DNA from: Defluviitaleaceae bacterium
Lineage (GTDB): Bacteria; Bacillota; Clostridia; Lachnospirales; WRAX01
Assembly: GCA_009779935.1 (NCBI GenBank)
Contig: WRAX01000006.1
Coordinates: 21,748-85,747 of the forward strand
DNA length: 64,000 nt
Direction: 5' to 3'
The notes below the pieces were generated by a model. It worked only from the letters and a program-made list of their open reading frames with translations. It ran no database searches and was not told where the DNA came from. This document shows, piece after piece, positions 131-18,977 of this stretch. The position numbers and the translations under genes are program-made. Numbering within the stretch: position 1 is the stretch's first letter; the number at the start of each line of letters is the position of its first letter.

Positions 131-140
131 TTTAGCAAGT

Positions 141-169
141 GCATATTTCCGTCCTCCGCCTCATAAATT
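141..169 (+). promoter_or_regulatory. sigmaE-type (mother-cell) promoter candidate for spoIVA
   Basis: GCATATT (141-147), a 14-nt spacer, then CATAAATT (162-169). This resembles the Bacillus sigmaE consensus as I remember it (ATATT-N14-CATACAnT). It lies about 45 nt upstream of the spoIVA ATG. Confidence 0.4.
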
Positions 170-214
170 GGGTGATAGATAATTGTCCAAAAAAAGAGAA
201 GAGGGATAAACTTT

Positions 215-1540
215 ATGGAAAATTTTAATATTTACCGGGATATTGCCGAGCGCACCAGCGGGGACATTTATATGGGGGTGGTGGGCCCTGTGCGCACGGG
301 CAAATCCACATTTATTAAGCGTTTTATGGATTTATTGGTGCTGCCAAATATGGAAAACCCCCATATTAAGGAGCGGGCAAGGGACGAATTGCCCCAATCC
401 GCCGCCGGCAGGGCAATTATGACCACCGAGCCAAAATTTATTCCCAACGAGGCGGTGGCCATAAGCCTTGATGATGTGGTAAATTTCCGTGTGCGGCTTA
501 TTGATTGTGTGGGGTATTTAGTGCCGGGTGCCGTCGGACATATGGACGATGATGCCCCACGCATGGTAAACACACCATGGAGCGAGCAAAAAATGCCCTT
601 CGCCCAAGCGGCAGAAATGGGTACAAAAAAGGTTATTAACGACCATTCTACCATTGGCATTGTAATCACCACCGACGGCAGCATTACCGACATCCCCCGG
701 GAGGATTACGAGGATGCCGAAGCCCGTGTAGTGGAGGAGCTTACAACAATCAACAAGCCTTTTATTATGATTCTAAACTCCACACGCCCATATGCAGGGG
801 AAACGGAGCAGTTGGCAAGCGAGCTTGGTGAAAAATACGGCATACCCGTCCTACCACTTAACTGCGCCCAATTAAAGGCGGAGGATATTACGCAAATTAT
901 GGAGCGGGTGCTGTACGAATTCCCTGTAAAAGAGCTACACATAAACCTTCCCAAATGGATAGAGCCGCTACCCATGAACCACTGGGTTAAACAATCCGTC
1001 ATCACCACCATGCAAGATATGGCACAGGGCATTTTTAAGATACGTGATATTAAAGCACACGCCGTAGCATCAATTGAGGAGAATGAGTTTATACGCAAAG
1101 CGTTTTTGGAGAGTATATCCCTTGGAGAAGGGGCTTGCGAAATCGAAATAAGTGTGGACGCCGCCCTGTTCTACCATGTGCTAAGCGAAGCCACGGGCAT
1201 GGATATTGATGGAGAGCACAAGTTGATTTCCACCATAAAAGTGCTTTCCGCTGCCAAACGGGAGTATGACAAAATCGCCGCCGCCCTTGATGAGGTAAAT
1301 TTCAAAGGTTATGGTATTGTAACCCCATCCATGGACGAAATGACGCTGGATGACCCGGAAATTGTACGCCACGGCAGCCGCTTTGGCGTAAAAATAAAAG
1401 CCAGCGCACCAAGCTTACATATTATCAAGGCCAGCATCGAAACCGAGCTGTTAATGTACAAAATGAAGGTTGCAACAGAATGGAATAAACGAGGAAATAC
1501 AAGCATTGATGTGGAATATGCATTCCGCCTTGTGGCATAA
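215..1540 (+). CDS. spoIVA: stage IV sporulation protein A, 5' portion (codons 1-411), interrupted by a mobile element; the ORF runs on through 31 element-encoded codons to a stop
   Basis: MENFNIYRDIAERTSGDIYMGVVGPVRTGKSTFIKRF (Walker A) through EPEIVRHGSRFGVKIKASAPSLHIIKASIETE is collinear with SpoIVA. Similarity ends at about 1447. A GAGGG RBS lies upstream. Confidence 0.9.
   Translation: MENFNIYRDIAERTSGDIYMGVVGPVRTGKSTFIKRFMDLLVLPNMENPHIKERARDELPQSAAGRAIMTTEPKFIPNEAVAISLDDVVNFRVRLIDCVGYLVPGAVGHMDDDAPRMVNTPWSEQKMPFAQAAEMGTKKVINDHSTIGIVITTDGSITDIPREDYEDAEARVVEELTTINKPFIMILNSTRPYAGETEQLASELGEKYGIPVLPLNCAQLKAEDITQIMERVLYEFPVKELHINLPKWIEPLPMNHWVKQSVITTMQDMAQGIFKIRDIKAHAVASIEENEFIRKAFLESISLGEGACEIEISVDAALFYHVLSEATGMDIDGEHKLISTIKVLSAAKREYDKIAAALDEVNFKGYGIVTPSMDEMTLDDPEIVRHGSRFGVKIKASAPSLHIIKASIETELLMYKMKVATEWNKRGNTSIDVEYAFRLVA
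1440..1446. repeat. junction core AAACCGA (putative attL crossover region)
   Basis: An identical 7-mer occupies the same codon phase at 18629-18635, exactly where SpoIVA similarity breaks and resumes. Confidence 0.6.
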
Positions 1541-1556
1541 ACAAGGCGGTTTTTTC
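1525..1556 (+). terminator. rho-independent terminator
   Basis: Stem ccgccttgt (1525-1533) pairs with acaaggcgg (1541-1549). A T-run follows at 1550-1555, directly after the stop of the truncated spoIVA ORF. Confidence 0.7.
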
Positions 1557-1587
1557 TTGTATACAAAATGAAGGGAGCTGAGAAGCA

Positions 1588-1911
1588 ATGGCGGTTTTTA
1601 GAGTTGAAAAGACGAAAGATTTTACGGTGATGAGCAACCATCATTTTAGAAACAGAGAGCTATCGTTAAAGGCGATGGGGCTTTTATCGTTGATGTTGAA
1701 TTTGCCCGATAATTGGGACTACACTCTTAAAGGGTTATCGACAATATGCGGCGATGGTATTTCAAGTGTCCGTGCTGGGTTGGTGGAATTGGAAACGCAT
1801 GGTTATGTTGTGCGTGTACGGCTACGTGATGAACACGGACGGCTTGCCAATACGGAGTATTCCATTTACGAAGTACCGCCGACAAAGCCGAAAAGCGTAA
1901 AATCTCCATAA
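1588..1911 (+). CDS. helix-turn-helix protein resembling the N-terminal domain of replication-initiator-like proteins of Clostridial mobile elements (short form)
   Basis: The MAVFRVEKTKDFTVMSNHHFRNRELSLKAMGLLSLMLNLPDNWDYTLKGL pattern is typical of this family. Only 107 aa are present, although homologues as I remember them are much longer. A GGGAG RBS is present. Confidence 0.55.
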   Translation: MAVFRVEKTKDFTVMSNHHFRNRELSLKAMGLLSLMLNLPDNWDYTLKGLSTICGDGISSVRAGLVELETHGYVVRVRLRDEHGRLANTEYSIYEVPPTKPKSVKSP

Positions 1912-1974
1912 GCCCAATATGAGCCGTTAGATAGTTCGTTTTTGCACAATGGAGATGCGAAAATCTTATGTACG

Positions 1975-2009
1975 AAAATCCAACATAGGTTTTCCCTATG
2001 TTGGATTTT
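1975..2009 (+). terminator. 15-bp perfect hairpin, possible terminator
   Basis: aaaatccaacatagg (1975-1989), loop ttttc, then cctatgttggatttt (1995-2009). The U-rich 3' arm lies downstream of the 107-aa gene. Confidence 0.4.
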
Positions 2010-2241
2010 AACACGCTATTAAGTATTAAGATATTTAGAATTTACTTATTAAAATCTTTATGAATTAAATACTCACTCTCCCGCCCTTCGGTTGGGTGTG
2101 TGTTTACAACAATGATGACTTGGTTGCAATCTAAAATCTTTAACTGGCTGAAAATGAAAAAAATAAGGCCTTGCGCTTAGGTGCTTCAGCGCGCTACAAT
2201 TATTTTGGGGAGATATAACCAAAAATTAGGAGCGTGATTTT

Positions 2242-2745
2242 ATGAGTAAAGAGTATATTCCAGTTGCCACAATCGACACGGTTTATTATGAGCCGCAGAC
2301 AAAAGAAGAATTTGACAAGTTGATGGAAGTCGTAAAAGTTGGGGATATGGTGTACAGTAAATGGGTATTCAGCGGTTTATGGTATACCGTTGGCCTAAAC
2401 GATATTAACGACCCCACATCAATATGCCTATTCCCCAACATAATCATGGATGAGGAATTACCGCAACTAACACGTTGGGGATTGGCTCGTTACCATTATC
2501 TGAAATCCGAGCGTAAATTCATGGCGGCGGGGTTTGGTACAGTTGGGCTGCATAAACATTGCCTTGAAGTACAAGAACAGGCTGAACAGCGAAAGGCAAA
2601 TATGATGGCTGCTATTCGCAAAGACCCCGCCAACCGTGTGTCGGAACGAGATAAAGCCGAAAACCCAATGGTGTGGGTACAGCGCATGAATCAATTTCAG
2701 GCACAAGTCCACGAAGTTATAAATACCGATTTAATCTTCAGCTAG
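2242..2745 (+). CDS. TnpV-like transposon-associated protein
   Basis: The C-terminal pattern (RYHYLKSERKF...LHKHCLEVQEQAEQRKANMMAAI...WVQRMNQFQAQVHEVINTDLIF) matches the TnpV family of Tn4451-type elements as I remember it. An AGGAG RBS is present. Confidence 0.55.
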   Translation: MSKEYIPVATIDTVYYEPQTKEEFDKLMEVVKVGDMVYSKWVFSGLWYTVGLNDINDPTSICLFPNIIMDEELPQLTRWGLARYHYLKSERKFMAAGFGTVGLHKHCLEVQEQAEQRKANMMAAIRKDPANRVSERDKAENPMVWVQRMNQFQAQVHEVINTDLIFS

Positions 2746-2773
2746 TGCCATTAAAATAGAAAGGAAGTGAAAA

Positions 2774-3121
2774 TTGAGTAAGAAAAGAACACGCAAAAAT
2801 CGCATCGTGTTTTGCTTGGACGACAGCGAATTTGAAATCCTATCACAGCGATTGCAAAAAGTCGGAATGAGAAACCGTGAGGCCTTTGTCCGCAAAATGG
2901 TTTTGGACGGCTACATCATCAACCTCGACATCAGTCCTTCGGTTGAAACAAATCGTTTGATACGAAGCATTTCCAACAACATTAACCAAATTACCAAGCG
3001 ATGTAACGAAACAGGCAGTGCTTACGAAAACGACTTTCGTGAATTACACGCCGAGGTTTGCAAATTGAAGCCGCTTATAATTCAAGCCCAAACCGAAATG
3101 ATAAAACTTTGTAAAATGTAA
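2774..3121 (+). CDS. MobC-like mobilisation (relaxosome accessory) protein
   Basis: TTG start with an AAAGGAAGTG RBS. RKNRIVFCLDDSEFEILSQRLQKVGM-NREAFVRKMVL followed by SISNNINQITKRCN is the typical MobC pattern. No relaxase gene follows. Confidence 0.6.
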   Translation: MSKKRTRKNRIVFCLDDSEFEILSQRLQKVGMRNREAFVRKMVLDGYIINLDISPSVETNRLIRSISNNINQITKRCNETGSAYENDFRELHAEVCKLKPLIIQAQTEMIKLCKM

Positions 3122-3140
3122 TCCAATACAAATTCACTTA

Positions 3141-3181
3141 GCAGCGGAACGCTTAGAAAAAAGCGTTCCGCTGCTTTTTTG
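3141..3181 (+). terminator. rho-independent terminator
   Basis: A 12-bp stem, gcagcggaacgc (3141-3152) with gcgttccgctgc (3163-3174), followed by TTTTTT. Confidence 0.8.
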
Positions 3182-3251
3182 TTTGCAAAACTGTTAAGCA
3201 CAGCGAAACAAATTTTGCAAATGGGGTCGAGGGGAAGCCCCTCGCAAGCGG

Positions 3252-3322
3252 CTGTGTTGCAACACAGACATTGCTTGCCTGTTTACCTGTTTACCTGTTT
3301 ACTCTGAAGCCCTTGTGTTTAC
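3252..3322. repeat. 16-bp perfect palindrome plus 8-bp tandem repeats
   Basis: The palindrome is ctgtgttgcaacacag (3252-3267). ctgtttac occurs three times in perfect tandem (3279-3302), with a further tgtttac at 3316-3322. Confidence 0.6.
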
Positions 3323-3573
3323 TGTGGTTTGGGATTTCGCCTCCAAAATGCACATTTATATGAATACATCTGAAAGGCTGCTTGAACAGCAGTCAATTAA
3401 GTTATCCACAATTTATGTGCAGCGCAAATTTGTAATTGTGCTGGGTCTAAATTTCTGGTATAATGTAAAATGAGGATAAGTGTGCAGATGTGCTTGTCAT
3501 AAATCATCATTTCATTTGCGCCTAATGCCTGCGTACAAGCAATCTTACAAACAGTTTCAGGGGGAACACATAT

Positions 3574-5166
3574 ATGGCAAAGATAAAAGTAAAGACAAAA
3601 ACAACCGAGCAAACATTGGAAACAATTATGATGAATTGCCGCAACGCCCTCCGTGGAACAATTGGCGGTAACGAAAAAAATCGTGATGCGGTTTTGGGAT
3701 TGGTGTTCCTAAAATTTGCAGGTTTCAAATTTGAAAATCGCCGTGCTGAAATTATTGAACAGTATGGTGATGTTCCTGCGTTTTTGGAGAAGAAGTCTTT
3801 TTATCTTTCCGAAAATGTTTTCTTCCTAAACGAAACATCACGCTGGAGTCATATTGAAATCAACGCAAGCGCAAATGATATTGCAGTAATCATTGACACA
3901 GCAATGAGGGATATTGAAGATGGCAACCCTCCGCTTAAAGGTGCGTTACCACAAAATTTTTATGTAACACTCGGCACTCGTCCTGAGCAATTGAAAGCGT
4001 TGATAGATGAGATAAACAAAATTGACGACAAACGTTTTCATGAGAGTGATTTAATTGGGCGTGTTTACGAATATTTTTTACAAGTGTTCGCAATTGATTC
4101 TGGCACAAGCAACGAAAAGGGCGAGTTCTACACTCCAGCCAGTATTGTTCAATTGATTGCTGAATTGATTGAGCCGTATTCGGGTGTGGTGTATGACCCC
4201 TGTTGCGGTTCGGCGGGAATGTTTGTGTCCTCCATCAAATTTGTGGAGCGGCACAATGGCAACCGCTCAAAAATTTCTGTGGTTGGGCAGGAACGCAACC
4301 CCGATACTTGGCGGCTTGCAAAAATGAACCTTGCAATTCGTGGAATTGCCCATAATCTTGGCGAACGGCCAGAATCCACTTTTGCGGAGGATTTGAACAA
4401 AGGCAAAATGGTTGACTTTATCATGGCAAACCCGCCGTTCAATTTGAAATTGGGTGCGCAAGGAGTAGCGCAAGACAATATGAACAGCGACCCCCGTTGG
4501 GATGGCTATACTCCACCACCAGTTTCAAATGCCAACTATGCGTGGATTTTGCATATGTTATCAAAACTGGATGTAACCAACGGCATCGCTGGATTTTTGC
4601 TTGCTAACGGTGCATTAAACGCTGATGGTGTTGAAGGTGAAATTCGCAAAGGATTGATTGAGAATGACAAGATTGAAGCCATTATCGTCCTTCCGCGCGA
4701 AATGTTCTACTCCACTGACATTTCCGTAACCTTTTGGATTTTGAACAACAATAAAAATGCACGTATACTAAATGGACGACAGTTGAGGGATAGGCGTGGC
4801 GAAGTCCTTTTTGTTGACTTGCGCCGTTGGAATGACAATATTTATGAAAAGAAATATGTGCAATTTTCTGACGAGCAGATTGATAACATAAAGAAAATCT
4901 ATACAAGCTGGCAAACAGGGGTTGATTATCAAGATGTGCCTGAATTGTGCCGTTCTGCGACAAAAGATGAAATAAAGGCACAAAAATATTCCCTTGCTCC
5001 CAGCAAGTACATTGAGTTTATAGACCATGATATGGAAATTGACTATGCAAGAGAAATGGCACGTATTCAAAGTGAGATGCGTGAGGTGTTGAGAGCAGAG
5101 AAGAAAGCCCAGTCGATGCTGGAAGTAGCTTTTAGGGGGATTGGATATGGCATTGACCAAAAATAG
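3574..5166 (+). CDS. hsdM: type I restriction-modification system methyltransferase subunit
   Basis: Carries the N6-adenine MTase motifs (VYDPCCGSAGMF, FIMANPPFN) on an HsdM-type N-terminal domain. An AGGGGG RBS is present. Confidence 0.9.
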   Translation: MAKIKVKTKTTEQTLETIMMNCRNALRGTIGGNEKNRDAVLGLVFLKFAGFKFENRRAEIIEQYGDVPAFLEKKSFYLSENVFFLNETSRWSHIEINASANDIAVIIDTAMRDIEDGNPPLKGALPQNFYVTLGTRPEQLKALIDEINKIDDKRFHESDLIGRVYEYFLQVFAIDSGTSNEKGEFYTPASIVQLIAELIEPYSGVVYDPCCGSAGMFVSSIKFVERHNGNRSKISVVGQERNPDTWRLAKMNLAIRGIAHNLGERPESTFAEDLNKGKMVDFIMANPPFNLKLGAQGVAQDNMNSDPRWDGYTPPPVSNANYAWILHMLSKLDVTNGIAGFLLANGALNADGVEGEIRKGLIENDKIEAIIVLPREMFYSTDISVTFWILNNNKNARILNGRQLRDRRGEVLFVDLRRWNDNIYEKKYVQFSDEQIDNIKKIYTSWQTGVDYQDVPELCRSATKDEIKAQKYSLAPSKYIEFIDHDMEIDYAREMARIQSEMREVLRAEKKAQSMLEVAFRGIGYGIDQK

Positions 5167-6280
5167 GTTAGGTAATTATATTGAACGTGTTGAACGCCGA
5201 AATTCAGAGCTGAAGTTCGGTGCGCTTGATGTTCGAGGTATTTCCAACAGTAAAGAAATTCAATCCACAAAAGCTAATATATCCGAGCGTTCATTTTTGC
5301 GATTTCAAATTGTTAATCCGCATGAATTTGTGTTCAATAGACGGACAACACGTATGGGAGAGAAACTAGGGCTTGGGTATAATGATATGGATGAACCCTT
5401 CATCGTTACTGAAGATTATGTTGTTTTTCGAGTCGTTGATGAAAAAATTTTATTGCCAGACTACCTCAATGTGTTTTTTCGACGTCCTGAGTTTGACCGT
5501 TATGCACGCTGGGACTCGTGGGGTAGTGCTACGGAGTTCTTTAACTGGGAGGAAATGTGTGATGTGCCAATTGACATTCCACCGCTGCCAAAGCAACAAA
5601 AATTTGTTGATGTTTATAATGCCATGCTTGCCAATCAGCGTGTTTATGAGGATAGTTTAAGTGACTTGGAAACTGCTATTTCTGCAAGCATTGAAGAATT
5701 TAAACATATCGCCCCTCGAATAGCAGTTGGCAAGCTGCTTGAAGAAGTAGACAATCGAAACCGTGATGACTCATTGTCGAATGTTCAAGGGATTAACATT
5801 AACAAAAAGTTTATGCCCTCGATAGCCAACTTAAGCACAACCGACCTTACGAAATACAAAGTTATACAGAGGGGTCAGTTTGCGTATAGTGCCATGCAAA
5901 CAGGGCGTGATGAGTGTATCCGTATAGCATTATTTCACGAGGATGAACCTGTGATAATTTCTCCTGCGTACTCGGTTTTGCAAGTCAAAACAGGAGTGGA
6001 GCGTCCTGTTCTTGCGGAGTATATAAAACTTTGGTTTAGTCGTAGCGAAAGTGATAGATATGGTTGGTTCATTAGCGATAGCAGTATTCGTGCAAGTTTG
6101 GAGTTGTCGAGGTTTTATGAAATAGAGATACCTCTGCCCTCTTTAGAAAAGCAACAAGCCGTTGTTAATTTTTACAACGCAAAGCACATGATAACCGAAA
6201 ATGTATCAAAAATAAGCAAACTTTTGAAAGAAATTTGCCCCATACTAATAAAAGGCTCGCTCGAAGAAGCCGAAGCGTAA
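5141..6280 (+). CDS. hsdS: type I restriction-modification system specificity subunit
   Basis: The start overlaps the hsdM 3' end. The protein has two target-recognition halves separated by conserved spacers (PPLPKQQKFVDVYNAM... and LPSLEKQQAVVNFYNAK...). Confidence 0.85.
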   Translation: MDMALTKNRLGNYIERVERRNSELKFGALDVRGISNSKEIQSTKANISERSFLRFQIVNPHEFVFNRRTTRMGEKLGLGYNDMDEPFIVTEDYVVFRVVDEKILLPDYLNVFFRRPEFDRYARWDSWGSATEFFNWEEMCDVPIDIPPLPKQQKFVDVYNAMLANQRVYEDSLSDLETAISASIEEFKHIAPRIAVGKLLEEVDNRNRDDSLSNVQGININKKFMPSIANLSTTDLTKYKVIQRGQFAYSAMQTGRDECIRIALFHEDEPVIISPAYSVLQVKTGVERPVLAEYIKLWFSRSESDRYGWFISDSSIRASLELSRFYEIEIPLPSLEKQQAVVNFYNAKHMITENVSKISKLLKEICPILIKGSLEEAEA

Positions 6281-6321
6281 ATTGTGCCAACACTGTCGGC
6301 ACAATTTTAGGAGGTACGAAG

Positions 6322-7350
6322 GTGCTTATAAACAACAACGAGTATTTTGAGATTTTAGAAAGTGTTAAAACGCATATAAACTGTGCCCAACACAAGGCTG
6401 TGATGGGGCTTAATCGTGAGCAGATAATCCTTTATTGGAACATTGGCAGGGTTATTTTGGATAATGCCAAATGGGGTAATAAGTTTGTGGACAACCTTGC
6501 AAAAGACATTAAACTGGAGTTTCCAAACGCAAAGGGTTATTCGGTGCGGAACTTGAAGTATATGCGCAAATTTGCTGAATTTGTGGATGATTTAGAAATT
6601 GTGCAGACACTGTCGGCACAATTGACATGGTCGCATAATAGGCTATTGCTCGACAAAACAAAATCGCTTGGTGAATATTTATGGTATGCGGATAGAACCG
6701 TGCAAGATGGGTTGTCGTTGTCTGGCTTGGAAAACCGCATTGAGCTAAAGAACTACGAGCGACAGGCAACATCAGAAAAAGTTGAAAATTATGGGCGATT
6801 ACTACCAGCACCACAAAACAGCTTAGTGACCGAAACGTTGAAAAGTCCTTATCTTTTCGACTTTATAGAGAAACATGACGATATTATCGAGCGCGAAATA
6901 GAACATGAACTTGTTGCAAATATTGTAAAAACACTCTTGGAACTTGGTACAGGGTTTGCGTTTATTGACAAACAATACACGCTGACCGTGGCGGATGTAG
7001 ATTATCATTGCGATTTGCTTTTTTACAATACACGGTTGCGTTGTTATGTCGTGATTGAGTTAAAGGCGGGCAAGTTTAAGCCCGAATACGCAGGTAAGTT
7101 GAATTTTTATTTATCTGCCGTAGACGATATGTTAAAGCATGAGCATGACAATCCAACTATCGGAATTATTCTATGCAAACATCGTGACAAGCTAACTGCC
7201 GAATACGCACTCAAAGACATTCATAAACCGATAGGCGTTAGCGAATATAAGTTATCTGATTTTGTGCCGGAGGAGCTGGCTGATACCCTGCCATCTGCGG
7301 AGGATATAGAGAAGCGGATAAAGCAGAAATACAAAATCATGGAAGATTAG
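6322..7350 (+). CDS. PDDEXK nuclease-domain protein (DUF1016/YhcG-like) embedded in the type I R-M operon
   Basis: GTG start 7 nt after AGGAGG. Shows the N-terminal pattern ILYWNIGRVI...GYSVRNLKYMRKFAEF and the C-terminal DLLFYNTRLRCYVVIELKAGKFKPEYAGKLNFY (D...ELK nuclease core). Confidence 0.7.
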   Translation: MLINNNEYFEILESVKTHINCAQHKAVMGLNREQIILYWNIGRVILDNAKWGNKFVDNLAKDIKLEFPNAKGYSVRNLKYMRKFAEFVDDLEIVQTLSAQLTWSHNRLLLDKTKSLGEYLWYADRTVQDGLSLSGLENRIELKNYERQATSEKVENYGRLLPAPQNSLVTETLKSPYLFDFIEKHDDIIEREIEHELVANIVKTLLELGTGFAFIDKQYTLTVADVDYHCDLLFYNTRLRCYVVIELKAGKFKPEYAGKLNFYLSAVDDMLKHEHDNPTIGIILCKHRDKLTAEYALKDIHKPIGVSEYKLSDFVPEELADTLPSAEDIEKRIKQKYKIMED

Positions 7351-7366
7351 ACGAGGGGGCTTTGCT

Positions 7367-10537: not shown

Positions 10538-10571
10538 CGAGTAAATATATAGGCATCGGAGGAAGCGATAA

Positions 10572-12644
10572 ATGGTATTGAAAAAAATAAAGCTGAAGAA
10601 TTTTAGGTGCTTCGGTAGCGATGAAACTACCATTTCTTTTGATGACCTTACAGCATTTATCGGCGCAAACAGTACGGGTAAAACAGCAGCCATGCAAGCT
10701 ATTGTAAAACTCTTTGGTATGAATCAATCTGAGCGCGAGATACGTCGTTCGGATTTTCACTTAACCACAAACAAGTCACCAGATGATGATGAAACAATAA
10801 CTCTTTCGATAGAAGCTGTGTTAGAGTTCCCAGAACTTGAAGATGAAAGTATACCTACAGATGCAGTTGCCCACTTCTTCAAATATTTTGTCGTTGATGA
10901 AAAAGGACAGCCTCCTTATTTGCGAATTTTATTGGAATCAATATATACAAAGGATGGAACAATAGAAGGCGATGTTGATACTCGTTATTATTTTGTCACT
11001 TCCAGCGAAAAGTTAGCTATTGAAGAAACCGATAAGCGACCAACCCGCTACAGTTCTTTTTCGACAATAAGGTGTATTTATGTTCCTGCATTACGTAATA
11101 CAAGCGAACAGTTGAAGAATGTTTCTGGCACAATGTTGTATCGATTGTTAAACAGCATCGATTGGGAGGAAAGCTCGGCTGCGTTGGAAGGTCATATGAA
11201 GAAAGTTAATGACGAGATAGTCAAAGTCCCGGGAGTTAGTGATTTGCAAGATATTTTGCAAGGACAGTGGCACGGATTTCATAATGACGGGCGATACACT
11301 AACACAAAAATTGAGTTTAATTCTACAGACATGGAGAGCGCACTAAAAACGGCATCTATTAAATTTTCTCCTACAGAGATACCGCGCGATTATGAAATTA
11401 ACGAGCTTGGCGATGGTCTTCGTTCATTGTTTTACTTTTCTTTGGTTAATACGCTATTACGAACTGAGCAAAAGATTTTAGAATCCATTGAAAAAGGTGA
11501 TATTCAGGCAAAAGCACCAAAAATTACGCCCCCTGTTCTAACTATATTAGTTGTAGAAGAACCCGAAAATCATATATCGCCACAACTAATGGGTAGGGTT
11601 ATTAAGAACATTAAAGATATTGCTACTATCAACAATGCCCAGACGGTTCTGTCTTCACACACCCCAGCAATAATTAAGCGAATTGAGGCTACGAAAATTC
11701 GCCATTTTGGATATGGTAACGACCAAAAATGCTCAAAAGTAATGAGTGTATTGCTCCCAAAAAATGAGGATGTTGCCTATAAGTATGTGAAAGAAGCCGT
11801 GGAATCTTATCCCGAAGTTTATTTTGCAAGGCTTGTTATATTAGGCGAGGGTGATAGCGAAATGTCGCTACTACCGAAAGTAATTGAAGGTGCAAGTGAA
11901 AATATAGATGTGATGGGTATTTCTGTGGCACCGCTCGGAGGTAGGCACGTTAATCATTTTTGGAGATTACTTAACCAACTTGAAATACCACACATTACGC
12001 TCTTGGATTTAGATAGAGAGCGTAATGGCGGTGGTTGGGGGCGAATTAAATATGTCATTAAACAACTACTGGAAAATGGAATTGATAAAAGCGTATTATT
12101 CAACATAAATTGTAATGACAAACTTACTGACGACTGCTTAGAAAAAATGCACGAACGGGAGCAGTCTCGGGTAACAGATATGGATTCGTGGATTGGCTGT
12201 CTTGAAAAATACAACATATTTTTCTGCGCTCCTCTCGATTTGGATTTTTTAATGCTCGAAAAATATACAGAAACATATAAGGCAACCATCGAGAAAGGTC
12301 ATGGACCTGAAATTAAGGGTGTTGGAAAAGTAAAGGACATTGAACACTGTAAGCCGCCCAAGGAGGAGTATACGAGTCGAATAAAAAGCAGTATAAAGCA
12401 TACCCTTAAACAAGAGGGCGGTGATGGCGAAACGTATTCACATGAGCAACAGAAACTGATGGTTTGGTATGATTATCTTTTTCTAAATCGAAGCAAGCCT
12501 GTTACCCATTTGAAAGCCTTATCTTCTCTGGATTTTGATGATATTGCATTGTATCCAGAGCCATTAAATAAAATCGTGCAATATGTAAAAAAATGCTTAT
12601 TGAGGGAGATTCAAAATGGGGTTGGAGATAATATCACCCAATGA
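10572..12644 (+). CDS. OLD-family ATP-dependent endonuclease (ABC-type ATPase plus Toprim), GajA-like
   Basis: Walker A GANSTGKT, Walker B-like LVVEEPENHISP, and Toprim motifs LVILGEGDSEMSLLP and LLDLDRE. A GGAGG RBS is present. Confidence 0.8.
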   Translation: MVLKKIKLKNFRCFGSDETTISFDDLTAFIGANSTGKTAAMQAIVKLFGMNQSEREIRRSDFHLTTNKSPDDDETITLSIEAVLEFPELEDESIPTDAVAHFFKYFVVDEKGQPPYLRILLESIYTKDGTIEGDVDTRYYFVTSSEKLAIEETDKRPTRYSSFSTIRCIYVPALRNTSEQLKNVSGTMLYRLLNSIDWEESSAALEGHMKKVNDEIVKVPGVSDLQDILQGQWHGFHNDGRYTNTKIEFNSTDMESALKTASIKFSPTEIPRDYEINELGDGLRSLFYFSLVNTLLRTEQKILESIEKGDIQAKAPKITPPVLTILVVEEPENHISPQLMGRVIKNIKDIATINNAQTVLSSHTPAIIKRIEATKIRHFGYGNDQKCSKVMSVLLPKNEDVAYKYVKEAVESYPEVYFARLVILGEGDSEMSLLPKVIEGASENIDVMGISVAPLGGRHVNHFWRLLNQLEIPHITLLDLDRERNGGGWGRIKYVIKQLLENGIDKSVLFNINCNDKLTDDCLEKMHEREQSRVTDMDSWIGCLEKYNIFFCAPLDLDFLMLEKYTETYKATIEKGHGPEIKGVGKVKDIEHCKPPKEEYTSRIKSSIKHTLKQEGGDGETYSHEQQKLMVWYDYLFLNRSKPVTHLKALSSLDFDDIALYPEPLNKIVQYVKKCLLREIQNGVGDNITQ

Positions 12645-14499
12645 GTGGGTGCCTCAAAACATAAAACTGGAAAAGGCAGCTATGGAAGCGGTTGTCAGTT
12701 CATCAAATACGTTGATAATCGCTGGTCCGGGGGCTGGTAAAACTGAAATGCTCAGTCAACGAGCTTGCTTTTTGTTGCAAACAAACACTTGCCCATCACC
12801 CAAGCGTATCCTTGCTTTGTCTTTTAAGAAAGATGCAGCAAGCAATTTATCTGAGCGTGTACTAAAGCGTTGCGGAAAGATGTTAGCCAACAGATTGGAA
12901 TCACTCACTTTTGATGCGTTCGCTAAAGAAATATTGGATAGGTTTTATATGGCATTACCCGAAAATTTTCGTCCTGCAAAGGATTACTTTGTAGACTTGA
13001 GCTCTGAACTGCTGAGAAGGGCGTATGAATTAGCTGGGTTGCCTTACGTTAGAGAGTCTGCGACAGATGATAGAACAAATATCAAAGCTCCTGTTATGAA
13101 AATTTTACTTCACGGAAATAAAAATGCGGATTTCCAGCCTGCACTTACTTTTACGACAATTTCACGTTTAGCAAATTACTTATTGAAAGAAAATCCGCTT
13201 ATAATCAAGGCTTTACAGCTTACTTATAGTCACATTTTTTTAGATGAGTTTCAAGACACTACAACCGTACAATACAATCTTGCCAAAACTTGTTTCTTGT
13301 CAACAAGCTGCATTATAACTGCTGTTGGCGACCAAAAACAACGAATTATGGGTTGGGCTGGAGCAATGTATGATGCCTTTGACAAGTTTCAACACGATTT
13401 TGGAGCTGTTGAAAAAGCTTTAGTCATGAATCATCGTTCGGTGCCTAAGTTGGTCAAAGCCCAGTACCAGTTGTACAATATATTGTCCTCATCTGATTTA
13501 ACGGCTAATGCCAACGTCAGTTTGCACACAAGTGAGGGCTGCATAATGTCACATACGTTCGCATCGCAAATTGATGAATCAAAATACTTGAAAAATGACA
13601 TCAGAATCAAGTTGAAGAACGGAATACAACCACGTGATATTTGCATTTTAACAAAGCGGTCTATTAGCGAATATTGCCATGATTTGTTGGGTGACATAGA
13701 GGGGACGAATTTTGCGATTAGAGATGAAAGCGTTTACCAAGACTTATTAAAAGAAGATTTGGTGAAGGTTTTATACGCTTTTCAATTATGTGGAAAAAAG
13801 AACAGGGGAACAGCAGAAGCCTTTGAGTATCTACAAGAGCTATATTTACAATTTAACTCCGTTGAGATTGATGATGTAGATAAAGTGAATATTTGCTCTG
13901 CACAGTTAAATAAATCAATACATGACATGGGCATGAAAATGGCAAAAATCACTGGGAAAACCCCTGATGAAAAAGATGCGTTTTTGGATATACAAAATGA
14001 AATCATCAGTTTTTTTGACAAAAACAAGTTCATGAAACACTTCCCGCAGTATCAAAACGGTAATTTCTTCAACGAAACATTGCAAAAGTTTATTGACCTG
14101 CTTTGGGCTGAGTTTGAAAAATCTAATGATTGGAAAACAGCACTTTCTACCTTCGAGGGGAACTTATCTGTACCTGTTATGACGATTCATAAAAGTAAAG
14201 GTCTGGAATTTGATTGTGTTTATTTCGTAGGTTTAGAAGATAACTCATTTTTTACCTTCCAACACAATCGTAGCGAAGATATATGTGCCTTTTTTGTCGC
14301 AGTTTCAAGGGCAAAAAACGAACTGCACTTCACAAGATGCCTAAATAGAACTTCACTCAACAACAATTCTGGCGCACAGAGCATAACGACAATTAAAGCG
14401 ATTCATGATGCAATAGAAAGTATTGCCGATATAGAATTTTATGACCATACATCAAATGAAGAATTGAGTAACGACCACATAGCAACAAGCCTTATCTAA
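12616..14499 (+). CDS. UvrD/PcrA-type SF1 helicase, GajB-like
   Basis: Motifs AGPGAGKTE, FLDEFQDTT and MTIHKSKGLEFDCVYFVG. The start overlaps the upstream OLD-family gene by 29 nt. Confidence 0.8.
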   Translation: MGLEIISPNEWVPQNIKLEKAAMEAVVSSSNTLIIAGPGAGKTEMLSQRACFLLQTNTCPSPKRILALSFKKDAASNLSERVLKRCGKMLANRLESLTFDAFAKEILDRFYMALPENFRPAKDYFVDLSSELLRRAYELAGLPYVRESATDDRTNIKAPVMKILLHGNKNADFQPALTFTTISRLANYLLKENPLIIKALQLTYSHIFLDEFQDTTTVQYNLAKTCFLSTSCIITAVGDQKQRIMGWAGAMYDAFDKFQHDFGAVEKALVMNHRSVPKLVKAQYQLYNILSSSDLTANANVSLHTSEGCIMSHTFASQIDESKYLKNDIRIKLKNGIQPRDICILTKRSISEYCHDLLGDIEGTNFAIRDESVYQDLLKEDLVKVLYAFQLCGKKNRGTAEAFEYLQELYLQFNSVEIDDVDKVNICSAQLNKSIHDMGMKMAKITGKTPDEKDAFLDIQNEIISFFDKNKFMKHFPQYQNGNFFNETLQKFIDLLWAEFEKSNDWKTALSTFEGNLSVPVMTIHKSKGLEFDCVYFVGLEDNSFFTFQHNRSEDICAFFVAVSRAKNELHFTRCLNRTSLNNNSGAQSITTIKAIHDAIESIADIEFYDHTSNEELSNDHIATSLI

Positions 14500-14929
14500 A
14501 TTGCGAAATCTAACCGAATTTGCTACCCCATTCCAATGCGCTACATTTATCACAGTGGCAATTTGCCACCGCTCACAAAAATACAAACTGGGTAAAACGT
14601 ATCCATTATCACCACAGTGGAGTGTATGGAAAGGAAGTGATTTCTGCAAAAAGAAACTAAAATTGGCAGAACAACGTACATAATCAACGGAAAATATCAA
14701 GCAGAGGGTGTTGGAGGCTACTCTCTGCTTTGCTTCGTTTGATGGAAAAAGACTTGCCGAAAACAGCAAGTAGCGTTATTGAAATATGTGAAGGCAAGGA
14801 AAAGTCGTGTATCGAAAATAATTTCGATTATTTTCAAAAAACAGCGGCATTTACGCCAAGGGTATGTTATAATAAGAGCATATCTCAAAACGATTTGGTC
14901 TGTTCGCTACAAGCAAAGGAAATTTGATT

Positions 14930-15594
14930 GAAGCTTACGAGCAGCTAATGGACTTCATTTCACGCCACACACTTGACAGATTTTTCCTTGTGGGCAACCA
15001 GCGTGTTAGTGTGTGTCTTGGATTGCGCGTGAGCTCGTGAGCAATATTCTTGTCCATAGGGAATTTAGCAGAGGATATATGGCACGAATCATCATCGAAA
15101 AAGACCGCATACTTGCGGAAAACTGGAACAGGCCGACACGCTCGGGGCGATTGACCCTCGAAGGCTTTAAGCCCGACCCCAAAAATCCATTGCTTGCGCA
15201 TTTTTTTATTCAAATCGGACGGGCTGATGTGCTTGGCTCGGGTGTTCGTAATTTATATAAATACACGCAGATATATTCGGGCGGAGAACCACAGCTTATT
15301 GAAGACGATATTTTTACAACAATCATTCCGTTGAAATCAGAAACAAATGGGAAGATAGAGGAAGTTAGAAAGGAAGTTATAGCGGAAGTAAATTTGTCGC
15401 AAGAAAAACTAAATAACTTGCTTGAATACTGCATTACGCCAAAGAGCAGAAAAGAGATGCAAGATTTTTGCGGTATAAAATCCGACGAACATTTTCGCTC
15501 AACGGTGGTTAAACCAATGCTACACCTCGGTCTAATTAAAATGACAAGCCCAAATAAACCAAAAAGTAGAAGCCAGAAGTATTATAAGGCGTGA
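14930..15594 (+). pseudogene. 5'-truncated, frameshifted remnant of an ATP-binding putative DNA-binding protein (HATPase_c_4 type)
   Basis: EAYEQLMDFISRHTLDRFFLVGNQRVS is in one frame (about 14935-15020). ARELVSNILVHREFSRGYMARIIIEKDRILAENWNRP... continues in another (15013-15594). No N-terminal domain is present upstream. Confidence 0.55.
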
Positions 15595-15618
15595 AAACAA
15601 GCGCAAAGGAGGACACCT

Positions 15619-16089
15619 ATGGGAACCAACTACTATTTTAGAAAAAAAGACGTTGATATGCCTCGGTTATATGCAATCGTCGATGCTTTGAATGCGGAGT
15701 GCAAAGTATTAGTCGCAAAGTATAACGAATTGTTGAATGAAGCGCGGCGTGAAATGGGCATCGGATACAAGCGTGAACTTGAACATTGGAACACTTACAT
15801 CTTGCCTGATGAAGGTGATGATATTGGCGATATTCATGTTGGGAAAATTTCCTATGGCTGGAAGCCGCTGATGAAGGCTGGCGAACATTTTCATTCTATC
15901 GAAACATTGCAGCGATGGTATGAGCAAAACAGGGGTGAGTATATCTTTATTGACGAATACGGCAAAACTAATTTACTTGAGGAATATTTGCTTGAAATCC
16001 GCAAAAGAAACGAGGATGCACAGAACAAAACTCATGATTACCCGATAGGTGCGGACGGATTTGAATGGACGAGCAGAGAGTTTTGTTAA
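15619..16089 (+). CDS. hypothetical protein
   Basis: A 156-aa ORF with a strong AAGGAGG RBS. No family recognised. Confidence 0.6.
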   Translation: MGTNYYFRKKDVDMPRLYAIVDALNAECKVLVAKYNELLNEARREMGIGYKRELEHWNTYILPDEGDDIGDIHVGKISYGWKPLMKAGEHFHSIETLQRWYEQNRGEYIFIDEYGKTNLLEEYLLEIRKRNEDAQNKTHDYPIGADGFEWTSREFC

Positions 16090-16161
16090 GGAAGAAGCTA
16101 ACCACTTTTTAAGCTGAACGTGTGGCGCATAAGTGCGCATTATAAACTTATAGTCATGTGC

Positions 16162-16373
16162 TTTCTAAGTTTTGCCGAAAAGTTTCTAAGTTTTGCCCGA
16201 AACTTTATAATTTTTCCTGTTTTTGATGTGCTACAATATATGTGAGGGGAACTGTGGGAAGGACTTGTTTGCGAGGTGTCTAAGAATTTCTAAAAATGTA
16301 TAAGAAGTGTCTGAGGATGTCTAAGAAAGTATAAGAATTGTCTATGGATTTCTGGTTTTTGCTGTGCTATGAT
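16162..16373 (+). promoter_or_regulatory. repeat-rich control region: direct repeats, iteron-like array and two near-identical extended -10 promoter modules
   Basis: tttctaagttttgcc(c)gaaa occurs twice (16162-16202). TTTTTGaTGTGCTAcAAT (16220-16237) and TTTTTGcTGTGCTAtGAT (16356-16373) are near-identical modules. About seven GT(C/A)TAAGAA-like units at roughly 10-11 nt spacing lie at 16276-16350. Confidence 0.4.
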
Positions 16374-16379
16374 TAAAAT

Positions 16380-16486
16380 GCGGAGGAATGCCGAAGAATT
16401 GATTTGATGTGTAGATTCTCTGCCTTTTTATTTCCCACATAAATTTGTTTTCAACCACCATTCCCTACCGGGTTGGTGGTTTTTTA
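16380..16486 (+). ncRNA. candidate small transcript (second promoter module to intrinsic terminator)
   Basis: The TGcTATGAT element ends at 16373 and a strong terminator lies at 16453-16486. Only tiny ORFs fall between them. Confidence 0.2.
16453..16486 (+). terminator. rho-independent terminator
   Basis: An 8-bp stem, aaccacca (16453-16460) with tggtggtt (16474-16481), running into a T-run. Confidence 0.6.
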
Positions 16487-16563
16487 TTGCCCTCAAAAAT
16501 CTAAATGGGCAAGCGTGACCGTTAGCATTGGCTATAGCGGGCGTTGTGAAAAGGAGATGATTC

Positions 16564-16815
16564 ATGCAAGGAAACGACAAGAAAATGGGTGCTACGAAAA
16601 GAGAGTCAAGCATACCTTTTAACAGGGGTGATGCTATGGTTAAAGTTACCACGCCAATCTGTGGGGCGAATGACCTTGCCTTTGCGCATTGGCAGCAGTA
16701 CGCTAACGAAAAGGCCTATGAGGCGAAATTGATTACAAAAGCGATGTATGAATTTGCACGGGATGAAATACATAAAACTATTGCACTCCTGTCCGAAGTG
16801 CGCTACAATGTATAG
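16564..16815 (+). CDS. small protein immediately upstream of the recombinase; candidate accessory or directionality factor
   Basis: An 83-aa ORF with an AAAGGAG RBS, ending 19 nt before the recombinase start. No family recognised. Confidence 0.5.
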   Translation: MQGNDKKMGATKRESSIPFNRGDAMVKVTTPICGANDLAFAHWQQYANEKAYEAKLITKAMYEFARDEIHKTIALLSEVRYNV

Positions 16816-16833
16816 TAAAGGCAGGTGTGTGTT

Positions 16834-18885
16834 ATGGATTTAATGAAAATGCGTAAGCTACTTGGTCAGGGCAAGTCCATTTACGACTTGCCCCTTAGGG
16901 TGGCGTATTATGCCCGTGTGTCTTCCGATACGGATATGCAACTGAACTCGCTAGACAACCAAATTACATACTTTGATGAGTTCATCAAGTCCAACAAAAA
17001 TTGGACTTTTGCAGGCGGTTATGTTGATGAAGGGTTATCTGGTGCAAGTGTAAAAAAGCGTGATGATTTTAAGAGAATGGTTGCTGATGGTGAATTGGGC
17101 AAGTTTGATTTGCTGATAACTAAGGAAATCAGCCGATTTGCTCGTGATACGCTGGATAGTATTCAATATACACGACAATTGCTTGCAAGCAATGTGGGCG
17201 TGTTTTTTCAAGCGGACAATATTTGTACGCTTTATTCAGATTCGGAATTACGACTAACCATCATGGCTTCTTTGGCGCAGGACGAGCTTCGCCGTTTGTC
17301 CGAGCGTGTGAAGTTTGGCATGAAGCAAGCGCACAAGGCGGGCAAGGTGCTTGGGCAGGATAATATGTACGGATATAAAAAGTCAAAGGGTAAACTTGTT
17401 GTTGATGAAAAGGAGGCGAAGTTTGTTCATGACTTGTATAGCTTGTATGCGGAGGACAAGTATGGTTTCCGTACTTTGGCACGGATTTTGCACGAGAAAG
17501 GCTATCGCAACCAATCGGGGGGTGAAATTAACCCAGGCAGCTTGAAAAGTATTTTGTCTAACCCGAAGTACAAAGGCTTTTACCACGGACATATCACGGA
17601 GAGTAATGACTATCGAGAGCAGAAAAAGGTCAAGACTGCGCTTGAGGATAGAATCCTGTATAAATGTGAAGAAGTCCCCGCAATCGTGTCGGAGGAGCTT
17701 TGGGAGAAGGTTAATGAAATTCTGGCTGTCCGCACATCAAAGTTTGCGAAAAAAGGGCGTGGTACAGTTCCGCAAACGCCTTATAGCGGAAAAGTTATTT
17801 GTGAGGAACACGGAACATTTCACTATCGCAAGATGTGGAAAGACCGTAAAATCCCTGCCGAGAGCTGGTGTTGTAAGGAGTATCTTGCAAAGGGTCGAAA
17901 GTTTTGTGCAACGCCGCATTTGTATACTCGGGATTTAGATGCCATACTTGAACACATAGGCGATGATTTGCTGTCCAACAAAGATAAGTATATGGCAAGC
18001 GTGGATAACCTATTGGCGATGTACGAAAAAGCCGACAACGGCGCATCTGCGGACTACGTAGGCGAAACCGCAAAACTAATGACTGCTATAAAGAAGAATA
18101 AGGCGCGGCAAGCTAAATTGGTGGAGCTATACACTGATGAAATCATTGACCGAAACGAGTTTGATGAGTTAAATACAAATCTCAAAAATGACACAGAACA
18201 ACTCAACATGGAAATTGCACGACTTAAAGAAGAAAAGAAAGCCGTAAACACAACGGCGGCACGGTTGACAAAGGTCAAGGAATTTTTCGCCACACTTTCG
18301 CCTGAGAAAATGCAGGCAACCGCTTCAAGACAAAGCGAAACCCAAATCTCTCCCGCTCTCCATGTCGCACAAGCCATGTTGGAATCTGTCACCATTCTCA
18401 AAGATAGCACTAAAACGGAAATGAAAATCCGCATTGACATGAAATTGGGTGGTACGACCGACTGCACCCTCGCTACTTTCGGCAAGCGGGATGCCACAGA
18501 GCATTTTGTTCTGGATGCTGAGGAAATTGAAAAAATCCTACGCTCAGACCCACCCGATGAATATGCTGAAAACCTTGAAGATGCTGGATTAACTGGCTTT
18601 GACAACAAAAATGTTATAAAGTACAGTCAAACCGAAATAAGCCCCATTGTGGGCAGCGAGCAAGAAAGCCGTGATTTAGTGGACTATTTTAACCGTGAGA
18701 TGGCGGAGCATCCTGATAAGATTTGGGAGCTTAATATGTTTGGCAAATCCATGCACAGCATGGTACGGGACGGATTACAAAACAAGCTGTACCGTATGCC
18801 GGACGATGCCCAGGTTAAAATGCAGGAAGCCTTGCAAAAAATCATAAACGAAGGCAGTGGGGGCATGGTTTGTATCTTGTTGTAA
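16834..18885 (+). CDS. large serine recombinase (SpoIVCA/TnpX-like) whose ORF continues in frame into the 3' 82 codons of spoIVA
   Basis: Resolvase catalytic domain (VAYYARVSSDTDMQLNSLDNQ...ISRFARD), recombinase domain, Cys-rich zinc ribbon and a coiled coil. A DUF4368-like segment (MLESVTILKDSTKTEMKIRIDMKLGG) follows. No stop codon occurs before 18885. Confidence 0.9.
   Translation: MDLMKMRKLLGQGKSIYDLPLRVAYYARVSSDTDMQLNSLDNQITYFDEFIKSNKNWTFAGGYVDEGLSGASVKKRDDFKRMVADGELGKFDLLITKEISRFARDTLDSIQYTRQLLASNVGVFFQADNICTLYSDSELRLTIMASLAQDELRRLSERVKFGMKQAHKAGKVLGQDNMYGYKKSKGKLVVDEKEAKFVHDLYSLYAEDKYGFRTLARILHEKGYRNQSGGEINPGSLKSILSNPKYKGFYHGHITESNDYREQKKVKTALEDRILYKCEEVPAIVSEELWEKVNEILAVRTSKFAKKGRGTVPQTPYSGKVICEEHGTFHYRKMWKDRKIPAESWCCKEYLAKGRKFCATPHLYTRDLDAILEHIGDDLLSNKDKYMASVDNLLAMYEKADNGASADYVGETAKLMTAIKKNKARQAKLVELYTDEIIDRNEFDELNTNLKNDTEQLNMEIARLKEEKKAVNTTAARLTKVKEFFATLSPEKMQATASRQSETQISPALHVAQAMLESVTILKDSTKTEMKIRIDMKLGGTTDCTLATFGKRDATEHFVLDAEEIEKILRSDPPDEYAENLEDAGLTGFDNKNVIKYSQTEISPIVGSEQESRDLVDYFNREMAEHPDKIWELNMFGKSMHSMVRDGLQNKLYRMPDDAQVKMQEALQKIINEGSGGMVCILL
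18629..18635. repeat. junction core AAACCGA (putative attR crossover region)
   Basis: Identical to 1440-1446 and in the same codon phase (cAA ACC GAa versus gAA ACC GAg). Confidence 0.6.
18636..18885 (+). other. spoIVA: spoIVA 3' portion (last 82 codons)
   Basis: ISPIVGSEQESRDLVDYFNREMAEHPDKIWELNMFGKSMHSMVRDGLQNKLYRMPDDAQVKMQEALQKIINEGSGGMVCILL* matches the conserved SpoIVA C-terminus (B. subtilis ...RIINEGSGGLIAIIL, from memory). Confidence 0.9.
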
Positions 18886-18896
18886 TTATAATGTAG

Positions 18897-18922
18897 GGTG
18901 GGGCTTGCCCCCACCTTTTTTT
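18897..18922 (+). terminator. rho-independent terminator (spoIVA side)
   Basis: GC-rich stem ggtgggg/ccccacc with loop cttgc, followed by TTTTTTT. Confidence 0.75.
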
Positions 18923-18949
18923 GCTTGCCCCGCTCATATACGTATACGT

Positions 18950-18975: not shown

Positions 18976-18977
18976 TA

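Follow-up and report, generated by a model that had tools for sequence, protein, structure and literature searches.

The 64-kb window analysed here, by which we mean the whole 64,000-nucleotide stretch taken from a 155,770-bp contig of a Defluviitaleaceae metagenome-assembled genome (MAG), contains the sporulation gene spoIVA in two pieces, separated by a 17,189-bp insert (window positions 1447-18635) that carries defence genes and a large serine recombinase. We propose that the insert is an intervening element of the skin/SPbeta kind with defence cargo, which would be excised in the mother cell, and we put the probability of this reading at roughly 0.7. A first-pass annotation had suggested such an element in spoIVA, and the borders, the recombinase, the common core, the restoration of the gene and the family of related loci all fit that suggestion in silico (Table 1).

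The plus-strand open reading frame (ORF) at 215-1540 encodes the first 411 residues of SpoIVA, in which the Walker A motif reads GPVRTGKST and the last residues are IKASIETE, followed by 30 unrelated residues and a stop; it matches Pfam SpoIVA_ATPase (1.3e-120) and SpoIVA_middle (1.3e-64), and the C-terminal domain is absent. The missing 82 SpoIVA residues are encoded at 18637-18882, with the stop at 18883-18885, where the Pfam SpoIVA_C match (6.2e-33) makes up the last 76 residues of a 686-codon recombinase ORF (16825-18885). GenBank annotates the pieces as MCL2854588.1 (441 amino acids, aa) and MCL2854601.1 (683 aa). The division of spoIVA into codons 1-411 and the last 82 codons, as first described, is borne out by Pfam domains on both pieces and by their colinearity with orthologues. 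The two halves had also been said to share strand and phase: both are indeed on the plus strand, but they are not in the same phase, since the insert length is 3n+2; the fragment ORFs stand in frames 2 and 1 and come into phase only after precise excision.

Joining 215-1446 to 18636-18885 (1446 to 18636) gives 1482 nt and a protein of 493 aa, the same figures as in the first-pass annotation when recomputed. The rejoined protein aligns without gaps over 100% of its length with intact orthologues of 492-494 aa, the best of which (P0001) is 86% identical, and the junction IETE/ISPIVG is invariant in that alignment. This was the check that had been proposed for the homology of 18636-18885 to the SpoIVA C-terminus, and the homology holds, with no gap at the junction. 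The intact gene of this best-matching relative (L001), to which the 5' fragment is 86.6% identical at the amino acid level, carries ATCGAAACCGAAATAAGCCC, identical over 20 nt to the attachment-site (attB) core predicted for the window.

Both junctions carry the heptamer AAACCGA, as reported at the outset. It is an established feature of serine integrases that they cross over at 2 bp in the centre of imperfect inverted arms, and the probable crossover dinucleotide here is the GA within the 7-bp core, which forms the first two bases of the invariant Glu411 codon. The predicted attB junction is GGCCAGCATCGAAACCGAAATAAGCCCCATTG and the predicted attP junction is AAGTACAGTCAAACCGAGCTGTTAATGTAC. The reconstructed attP, AAGTAC-N20-GTACAAAATG, has the same spacing and central GA as the attP of L003, a phage-like contig on which the related recombinase P0190 does not adjoin spoIVA and where the inverted arms are a perfect 10 bp (CATTTTGTAT-N20-ATACAAAATG). 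The right arm of the window's attP, GTACAAAATGAAGG at 1456-1469, shares its motif with L003 and lies within the element-encoded tail that is now fused to truncated SpoIVA; likewise, the end of the P0190 ORF (...LYSHTE-VSTYKMKV...) resembles the end predicted for the window's recombinase after excision (...KYSQTE-LLMYKMKV...).

Because attP is located within the recombinase gene, at its 3' end, integration makes two chimeric ORFs: SpoIVA(1-411) with a 30-aa recombinase tail, closed by a terminator, and the recombinase with the 82-aa SpoIVA C-terminal domain in place of its own last 30 residues. Transcription of truncated spoIVA would stop at this terminator, as would, on the circle, that of the recombinase gene. 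The tail is partly constrained as DNA, ILY and YKMK being attP arms, and beyond these it keeps weak protein similarity across distant elements (..G...NFEIEYAF). In an AlphaFold2 (AF2) model of the free form P0190 the body has a mean predicted local distance difference test score (pLDDT) of 81, and residues 537-570, where the alignment has no depth, score 31-40, values that do not support a folded native tail. We treat the swap of ORF ends as a by-product and saw no evidence that it matters. That it should be functional, giving isoforms that differ in directionality, stability or localisation and so act as a built-in sensor of the integration state alongside the shared 10-codon hotspot, strikes us as improbable; the SpoIVA C-domain could in that case tether an excision-competent recombinase or couple the enzyme to SpoIVA/SpoVM assembly.

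Two further features were observed near the attachment sites. A second copy of the attP right-arm motif, ATACAAAATGAAGG, is found at 1561-1574, 105 nt inside the element, just past the terminator, where it overlaps the first gene's ribosome-binding site; a similar copy is present in L195 and absent from L222 and L293. At the other end, a sigma-70-like match (TTGACA-17-TACAGT, 10/12, a consensus match only) at 18599-18627 overlaps the attP left arm and points outward, into the spoIVA 3' fragment or, on the circle, across the joint.

The junction recurs at the same spoIVA codon in a family of elements (class A). A SpoIVA_C tail is present in 73 of the 120 nearest recombinase clusters (100% to ~49% identity to the window's), and all but one of these tails (72/73) are exactly 82 residues long, reach the C-terminus and are joined after xTE. 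The read-through at attR is in frame at L006, L008, L010-L014 and L090-L094, and it is seen in Defluviitaleaceae and Oscillospiraceae MAGs of termite and human gut. Scanning metagenomes with the predicted attL pattern revealed five more left junctions, in hosts whose SpoIVA N-terminal parts are 56-66% identical to the window's. Related recombinase tails follow at each, four of them nearly the same as the window's (E[LI][IM]YKMKVATEWNKRGNTSIDVEYAFRLVA and a stop); three of these four loci carry the terminator too, and two carry the next gene. Cargo varies across the family, with restriction/HEPN systems at L008, RHS toxin cassettes at L091, HipA at L090 and phage genes at L003.

Between the window and L006, identity is 92% for the recombinases but 56% for the SpoIVA tails; conversely, some tails that are 90-96% identical stand beside recombinases only 61-70% identical, and over all pairs the correlation is weak (Spearman 0.41). 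Judged by these comparisons, the elements evidently move horizontally between hosts.

In four recombinases of the family (P0142, P0152, P0156 and P0198) other sequences follow YSxTE, among them a degenerate SpoIVA-like stretch and a 200-aa extension, which could reflect alternative integration sites or decayed targets. A recombinase-profile scan of IMG/VR for free or circular forms returned no locus more than 52% identical and none adjoining spoIVA, and five matches to a degenerate attP pattern were rejected as chance, there being no recombinase beside them. Among characterised phages the best recombinase match, 40.7% identical, comes from a 7-kb contig that carries no annotation. When the P0162 tail was used to look for an empty site in the species of a well-sampled carrier, the best 120 matches were mostly stand-alone 91-aa fragments of a second lineage (below) and no full-length SpoIVA, a result that supports no conclusion because the HMMER length correction may rank intact spoIVA genes below the best 120.

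The spoIVA gene encodes an ATPase by which the spore coat's basement layer is laid down, is established as a mother-cell sigmaE gene both in B. subtilis and in C. difficile, and is one of the earliest genes to be turned on in the mother cell. Upstream of the 5' fragment stands the sigmaE-like promoter that had been pointed out initially, GCATATT-N14-CATAAATT, the sole strict sigmaE consensus match in window 1-20000; the same motif with equal spacing precedes the intact L001 orthologue, and similar motifs precede other split copies. (An Rfam search of the same 20 kb gave no match.) For the 5' fragment, the ratio of nonsynonymous to synonymous substitution rates (dN/dS) comes to 0.043 when an intact orthologue is the partner and to 0.044 between two split hosts (dS 1.24), and reading frames are kept in 72/72 full SpoIVA tails and in 6/6 class A 5' fragments examined. 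Both halves are under purifying selection. Intact frames, low dN/dS and a kept promoter together suggest that spoIVA is still in use, which would require excision; we regard this evidence as strong but not conclusive, because the time since insertion cannot be dated when the divergences of element and host are only weakly correlated.

A second lineage of recombinases (class B), 40-48% identical to the window's, lies directly upstream of spoIVA 3' fragments without read-through (L015, L045, L074, L075, L053, L059, L067 and L088; L295-L297). Its junction falls ~8 codons earlier in spoIVA, at (S/T)IH(M/I)I, and its core is near ATACATAT. For the two elements available in full (9.4 kb and 6.9 kb), removal restores spoIVA genes of 492 aa. 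Cultured carriers are Pseudoflavonifractor capillosus An827, P. intestinihominis CLA-AP-H29, Flavonifractor sp. An306 and Anaerovorax sp. IOR16. The footprint of the lineage is a stand-alone 91-aa SpoIVA_C ORF that is abundant in the protein database; one such ORF (24 contigs) has as its neighbours a small ORF, a recombinase of 557 aa and a varying set of polysaccharide genes. The cargo adjacent to L295-L297 is a strain-variable glycosyltransferase/polysaccharide gene set. At L078:877-3718 a ~43% identical recombinase is convergent with a spoIVA 5' fragment ending at about codon 404, an orientation opposite to all others.

Other recombinases ~40% identical to the window's adjoin sigK 3' fragments (NCBIfam SigK, profile ~55-231 of 235) at L018:11596-12147, L020, L022:3871-4404, L027, L044:11296-12153 and L055, and these look like skin-type elements in Oscillibacter/Oscillospiraceae MAGs. 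In a distant clade (~42-48% identity; P0203-P0206, P0208, P0218 and others, with loci L017:9983-11695, L019:514-2211 and L049:1786-3522) the recombinase ORFs end in ...EIGISQAQVSRLEKNAIxxMKKYL, a sequence that resembles region 4.2 of a sporulation sigma factor of the SigF/SigG type. There, read-through of this design may split a forespore sigma-factor gene, a situation hard to square with excision confined to the mother cell. In yet another lineage (L298:4135-10423) a 140-aa spoIVA remnant lies near gerA and gerAC, each broken in two, a picture that suggests decaying sporulation genes and not an intervening element.

Given these data, we envisage the following mechanism. The element's own large serine recombinase would have inserted the 17,189-bp island at the invariant Thr410-Glu411 codons of spoIVA, at the boundary between the middle and C-terminal domains of SpoIVA. 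Recombination of attL with attR, with a 2-bp crossover at the GA within AAACCGA, would release the element as a circle and leave an intact 493-codon spoIVA behind the sigmaE-type promoter. To judge from elements such as skin, SPbeta and gin, excision would take place in the terminally differentiating mother cell, and the forespore chromosome would keep the element. Since spoIVA is switched on early, an element within it would have to leave early for a spore to form.

A conserved small protein encoded directly upstream would aid the recombinase as a candidate directionality factor. Its ORF precedes the recombinase in class A, in class B and in the free form L003, has the motif N.xLY..G.IT.xMY..A...I, and matches no Pfam or PHROG family. 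The tetramer CATA, which is the core of the sigmaE/sigmaK -10 element, occurs 15-60 nt upstream of the small ORF at 13/17 loci, against 19% of control ORF starts; the window and L006 lack it at that position, and in the window the internal ATG at 16636 is preceded by CATACCTT, too near to convince. A sigma-70 scan gave background-level matches only. The assignment of the small ORF rests on its position, which mirrors that of skr upstream of spoIVCA (PMC6957869), and mother-cell control of excision is inferred from analogy together with the bias of the wider recombinase clade to mother-cell genes.

Several observations weigh against developmental excision. The CATA enrichment (p ~4e-7, ~2e-6 on 14 non-redundant groups) concerns a motif picked post hoc, and in regular-expression scans of the window and of its closest relative, L006, neither the small ORF nor the recombinase had a sigmaE/sigmaK consensus upstream. 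At L090:7285-11944 an 80% identical recombinase belongs to a 4.4-kb remnant that abuts glycosidase genes and lacks a spoIVA 5' fragment over the nearest 10 kb; it could be a rearranged or dead-end insertion or part of a much larger composite element, and the missing 5' part means that some insertions may be dead ends. The window element itself shows decay, its AlbA_2 gene being truncated and its Rep-like ORF short. The host is known as a MAG of an uncultured Defluviitaleaceae bacterium, the search for a second spoIVA, which found none, covered the 64-kb window, and neither an attB nor an attP junction of the excised window element was present in databases, where the best intact SpoIVA is 86% identical.

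The alternative that survives best is plain insertional inactivation, in which spoIVA would be a safe common landing site, excision, if any, would serve horizontal transfer, and carriers would be asporogenous or becoming so. Loss of sporulation is common in gut Firmicutes, and this view would accommodate the lack of a detectable sporulation promoter at the window's recombinase module, the L090 remnant without its 5' part and the decaying spoIVA beside broken gerA genes. It is nevertheless unlikely in our estimation, as it does not sit well with the intact state of all full tails and of the class A 5' fragments examined, with a dN/dS of ~0.04 even between two split hosts, with the conserved sigmaE-like promoter, or with the way in which two or three lineages of recombinases converge on one stretch of 10 codons in a gene of the mother cell. 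Moreover, related recombinases adjoin sigK fragments, and a bias to mother-cell genes is what the developmental model predicts (PMC6957869).

We consider it less likely still that the element is a reversible population switch, toggling sporulation ability by stochastic, stress-dependent or growth-phase-dependent excision and reintegration in vegetative cells, after the models of active lysogeny at comK and of the yin element of yabG. The yin element was found excised at all time points (PMC10747680), the elements turn over frequently between hosts, and the conserved native recombinase C-terminus and terminator, with the free attP form in a relative, imply that the circular state is functional. 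On the other hand, no sequence sign of SOS or stress control was seen, and complete machinery for replication or transfer is missing from the window element, so that its loss after vegetative excision would be likely; nor does such a switch exclude mother-cell excision, as SPbeta does both. A mis-assembled contig or a genuine recombinase-SpoIVA_C fusion protein, as the single 683-aa "recombinase family protein" of the gene caller and GenBank would have it, is effectively refuted by the recurrence of the junction on dozens of contigs that are independent of one another and stem from several assemblers and samples, by the matching spoIVA 5' fragment 17 kb upstream on the same strand, by a tail that tracks the host and not the recombinase (92% vs 56% identity), and by the existence of matching attL junctions.

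Elements of the kind we propose have been described in several sporulation genes (Abe 2014, PMC4191935; Suzuki 2019, PMC6957869; Serrano 2016, PMC5025042; Abe 2017, PMC5595907), and spoIVA itself figures as a sigmaE target in PMC5025042. The skin element of sigK (B. subtilis SpoIVCA/Skr; C. difficile CD1231/CD1234) likewise has a large serine recombinase at its end, interrupts a mother-cell gene that is rebuilt by precise excision, and carries a small ORF (skr) immediately upstream of the recombinase (PMC6957869, PMC5025042); a further link is the ~40% identity of the recombinases that adjoin sigK 3' fragments to the window's. It differs in that the window's target is an early sigmaE-regulon structural ATPase and not a sigma factor, that the window's cargo is defence systems and not phage remnants, and that in the window the ORF of the recombinase extends across attP into the host gene. 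The gin element of gerE in B. cereus ATCC 10987 shares a non-prophage nature, a serine recombinase and reconstitution of the gene during sporulation (PMC5595907), but has another target gene and cargo, whereas the window's element is 17 kb long and belongs to a family spread across many uncultured Clostridia. SPbeta/spsM (SprA/SprB), phi3T/kamA, vfbin/spoVFB, vrin/spoVR and yin/yabG are attL-rdf-int-attR units (rdf, recombination directionality factor; int, integrase) that split sporulation genes in the same way (PMC4191935, PMC6957869, PMC10747680) but are prophages or prophage-like. The Anabaena heterocyst elements of nifD, fdxN and hupL (cited in PMC6957869) share developmental excision from genes of a terminal cell type, in another phylum and with other recombinases and another developmental programme. 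The window element is closer to the non-phage gin element than to the prophages, and has defence cargo.

Outside sporulation, the clostridial transposons Tn4451/Tn4453 (TnpX, TnpV) also combine a large serine recombinase with a TnpV homologue and a Mob-accessory-like gene, and their circular intermediate changes expression across the joint. Tn4451 crosses over at a GA dinucleotide, as we infer for the window element. Unlike these transposons, the window element has no TnpZ-type relaxase or resistance gene and carries its recombinase at the opposite end, and its family is strictly spoIVA-specific, where Tn4451 is loose in its choice of target. An att site within the recombinase ORF, such that integration alters the recombinase protein, is known from the archaeal Fuselloviridae: SSV1 has attP inside its int gene, which encodes a tyrosine recombinase and is split in two. 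In the window only the last 30 recombinase residues are exchanged for 82 host residues, and the swapped region is predicted with low confidence.

The targets published in accessible literature are sigK, spsM, spoVFB, spoVR, gerE, kamA and yabG; spoIVA is not listed, and a search of the literature, with subscription-only papers outside its scope, found no published spoIVA-borne element. The mechanism would be that of the known skin/SPbeta kind, with spoIVA as an apparently newly found target. If the proposal is true, gene reconstitution extends from late regulators and enzymes (sigK, gerE, spsM, spoVFB, spoVR, yabG) to an early structural morphogen. Besides this target, the notable features are defence cargo on a non-phage element, an attP within the recombinase ORF, a hotspot common to at least two recombinase lineages, and a wide spread in uncultured Clostridia. 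In the gut and in termites spoIVA elements are common in uncultured Defluviitaleaceae and Oscillospiraceae, and their cargo across lineages (anti-phage systems, toxin cassettes, polysaccharide genes) suggests that accessory DNA uses sporulation genes as heritable parking sites. The four cultured carriers of the second lineage make developmental excision directly testable, and recombinases with an attB in an invariant Thr-Glu codon pair are candidate genome-engineering tools. Annotation pipelines name the pieces "441-aa SpoIVA" and "683-aa recombinase family protein", or 91-aa SpoIVA_C ORFs, and genome-based predictions of sporulation may in consequence miscount carriers.

Table 1. Features of the split spoIVA gene and of the inserted element, in window coordinates.
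Feature	Position	Strand	Remarks
Putative sigmaE-like spoIVA promoter	141-169	+	Consensus match to GCATATT-N14-CATAAATT
spoIVA 5' fragment	215-1446	+	Codons 1-410 and first 2 nt of Glu411; Pfam SpoIVA_ATPase, SpoIVA_middle
attL common core AAACCGA	1440-1446	+	Probable crossover dinucleotide GA at 1445-1446; 7-mer identical at both junctions
Element-encoded tail fused to truncated SpoIVA	1447-1540	+	LLMYKMKVATEWNKRGNTSIDVEYAFRLVA and stop; recombinase's own C-terminus after excision
Intrinsic terminator	1525-1556	+	9-bp stem, 6 GC pairs, T-run; conserved at L222, L242, L293
HTH_36 protein, 107 aa	1588-1911	+	Pfam HTH_36 2.4e-07; PHROG 4707 replication initiation protein 1.1e-24
TnpV-family protein	2242-2745	+	Pfam TnpV 7.2e-19
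NikA/MobC-like relaxosome accessory protein	2774-3121	+	Pfam NikA-like 2.1e-09, MobC 6.4e-07
Type I restriction-modification system	3574-10537	+	hsdM 3574-5166, hsdS 5141-6280, hsdR 7367-10537; Pfam, PADLOC
YhcG-like/DUF1016 PDDEXK nuclease gene	6235-7350	+	Inserted between hsdS and hsdR; PADLOC candidate system PDC-S02 6.4e-129
Gabija	10572-14499	+	gajA 10572-12644, gajB 12616-14499; overlapping ORFs
Truncated AlbA_2/Fic-like_C remnant	14920-15594	+	ORF 15013-15594; Pfam Fic-like_C
Conserved 156-aa protein	15619-16089	+	No Pfam match; L006 copy ~90% nt identity
Small ORF directly upstream of recombinase	16564-16815	+	83 aa, or 60 aa from ATG 16636; candidate recombination directionality factor
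Large serine recombinase	16834-18635	+	601 aa to crossover; ORF continues in frame to 18885
attR common core AAACCGA	18629-18635	+	GA at 18634-18635
spoIVA 3' fragment	18636-18885	+	Third base of codon 411, 82 codons, stop; Pfam SpoIVA_C 6.2e-33
spoIVA terminator	18895-18917	+	

The guanine-plus-cytosine content of the insert is 40.6%, and the difference from its flanks (47.0% and 45.6%) indicates a foreign origin. Pfam found no capsid, tail, terminase or lysis gene in 15 ORFs (all plus-strand ORFs of at least 100 aa and the 83-aa ORF), and PHROGs, run on 6 proteins, matched only families of replication initiators, integrases and invertases, besides two whose function is unknown; a prophage identity was rejected, as phage structural genes are absent. 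Nor did Pfam detect a relaxase domain in any ORF of at least 100 aa. The insert is a non-phage integrative element, a defence island that is partly decayed.

The recombinase matches Pfam Resolvase (PF00239, 2.5e-28) and Recombinase (PF07508, 6.7e-19) above cutoff and Zn_ribbon_recom (PF13408, 4e-05) just below it (24.3 bits, cutoff 25.3); it also matches the PHROG 95 integrase (2.4e-103) and the catalytic domain of PDB 3g13 (6.7e-41), and has the serine motif YYARVSS. The AF2 model of its relative P0190 predicts typical large-serine-recombinase domains, with long helices at 365-489 that are consistent with a coiled coil. At the other end of the element, the HTH_36 protein resembles only the N-terminal ~100 aa of replication-initiator/DnaD-like proteins (PHROG 4707 positions 7-106 of 409).

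In PADLOC the type I restriction-modification system is recognised by MTase_I (1.8e-115) and REase_I (E=0), and Gabija by GajA (2.7e-239) and GajB (1.8e-198), the latter system supported by Pfam AAA_15 with an OLD-like TOPRIM domain and a UvrD helicase. The match of HsdS is weak (1.6e-07). In the related element L006 (L006:303-2327) an intact 470-aa AlbA_2/Fic-like_C gene follows hsdR directly, without Gabija, whereas in the window Gabija sits between hsdR and the AlbA_2 gene, whose 3' part alone survives (homology from 14920). Gabija appears from this arrangement to be a secondary insertion that truncated the AlbA_2/Fic-like gene.

The spacer before the small ORF contains a cluster of short direct repeats at 16162-16338, with TTTCTAAGTTTTGCC(C)GAAA present twice and TGTCTAAGAA-like units three to five times. 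This repeat cluster is partly conserved in L090 and could be a binding array or iterons.

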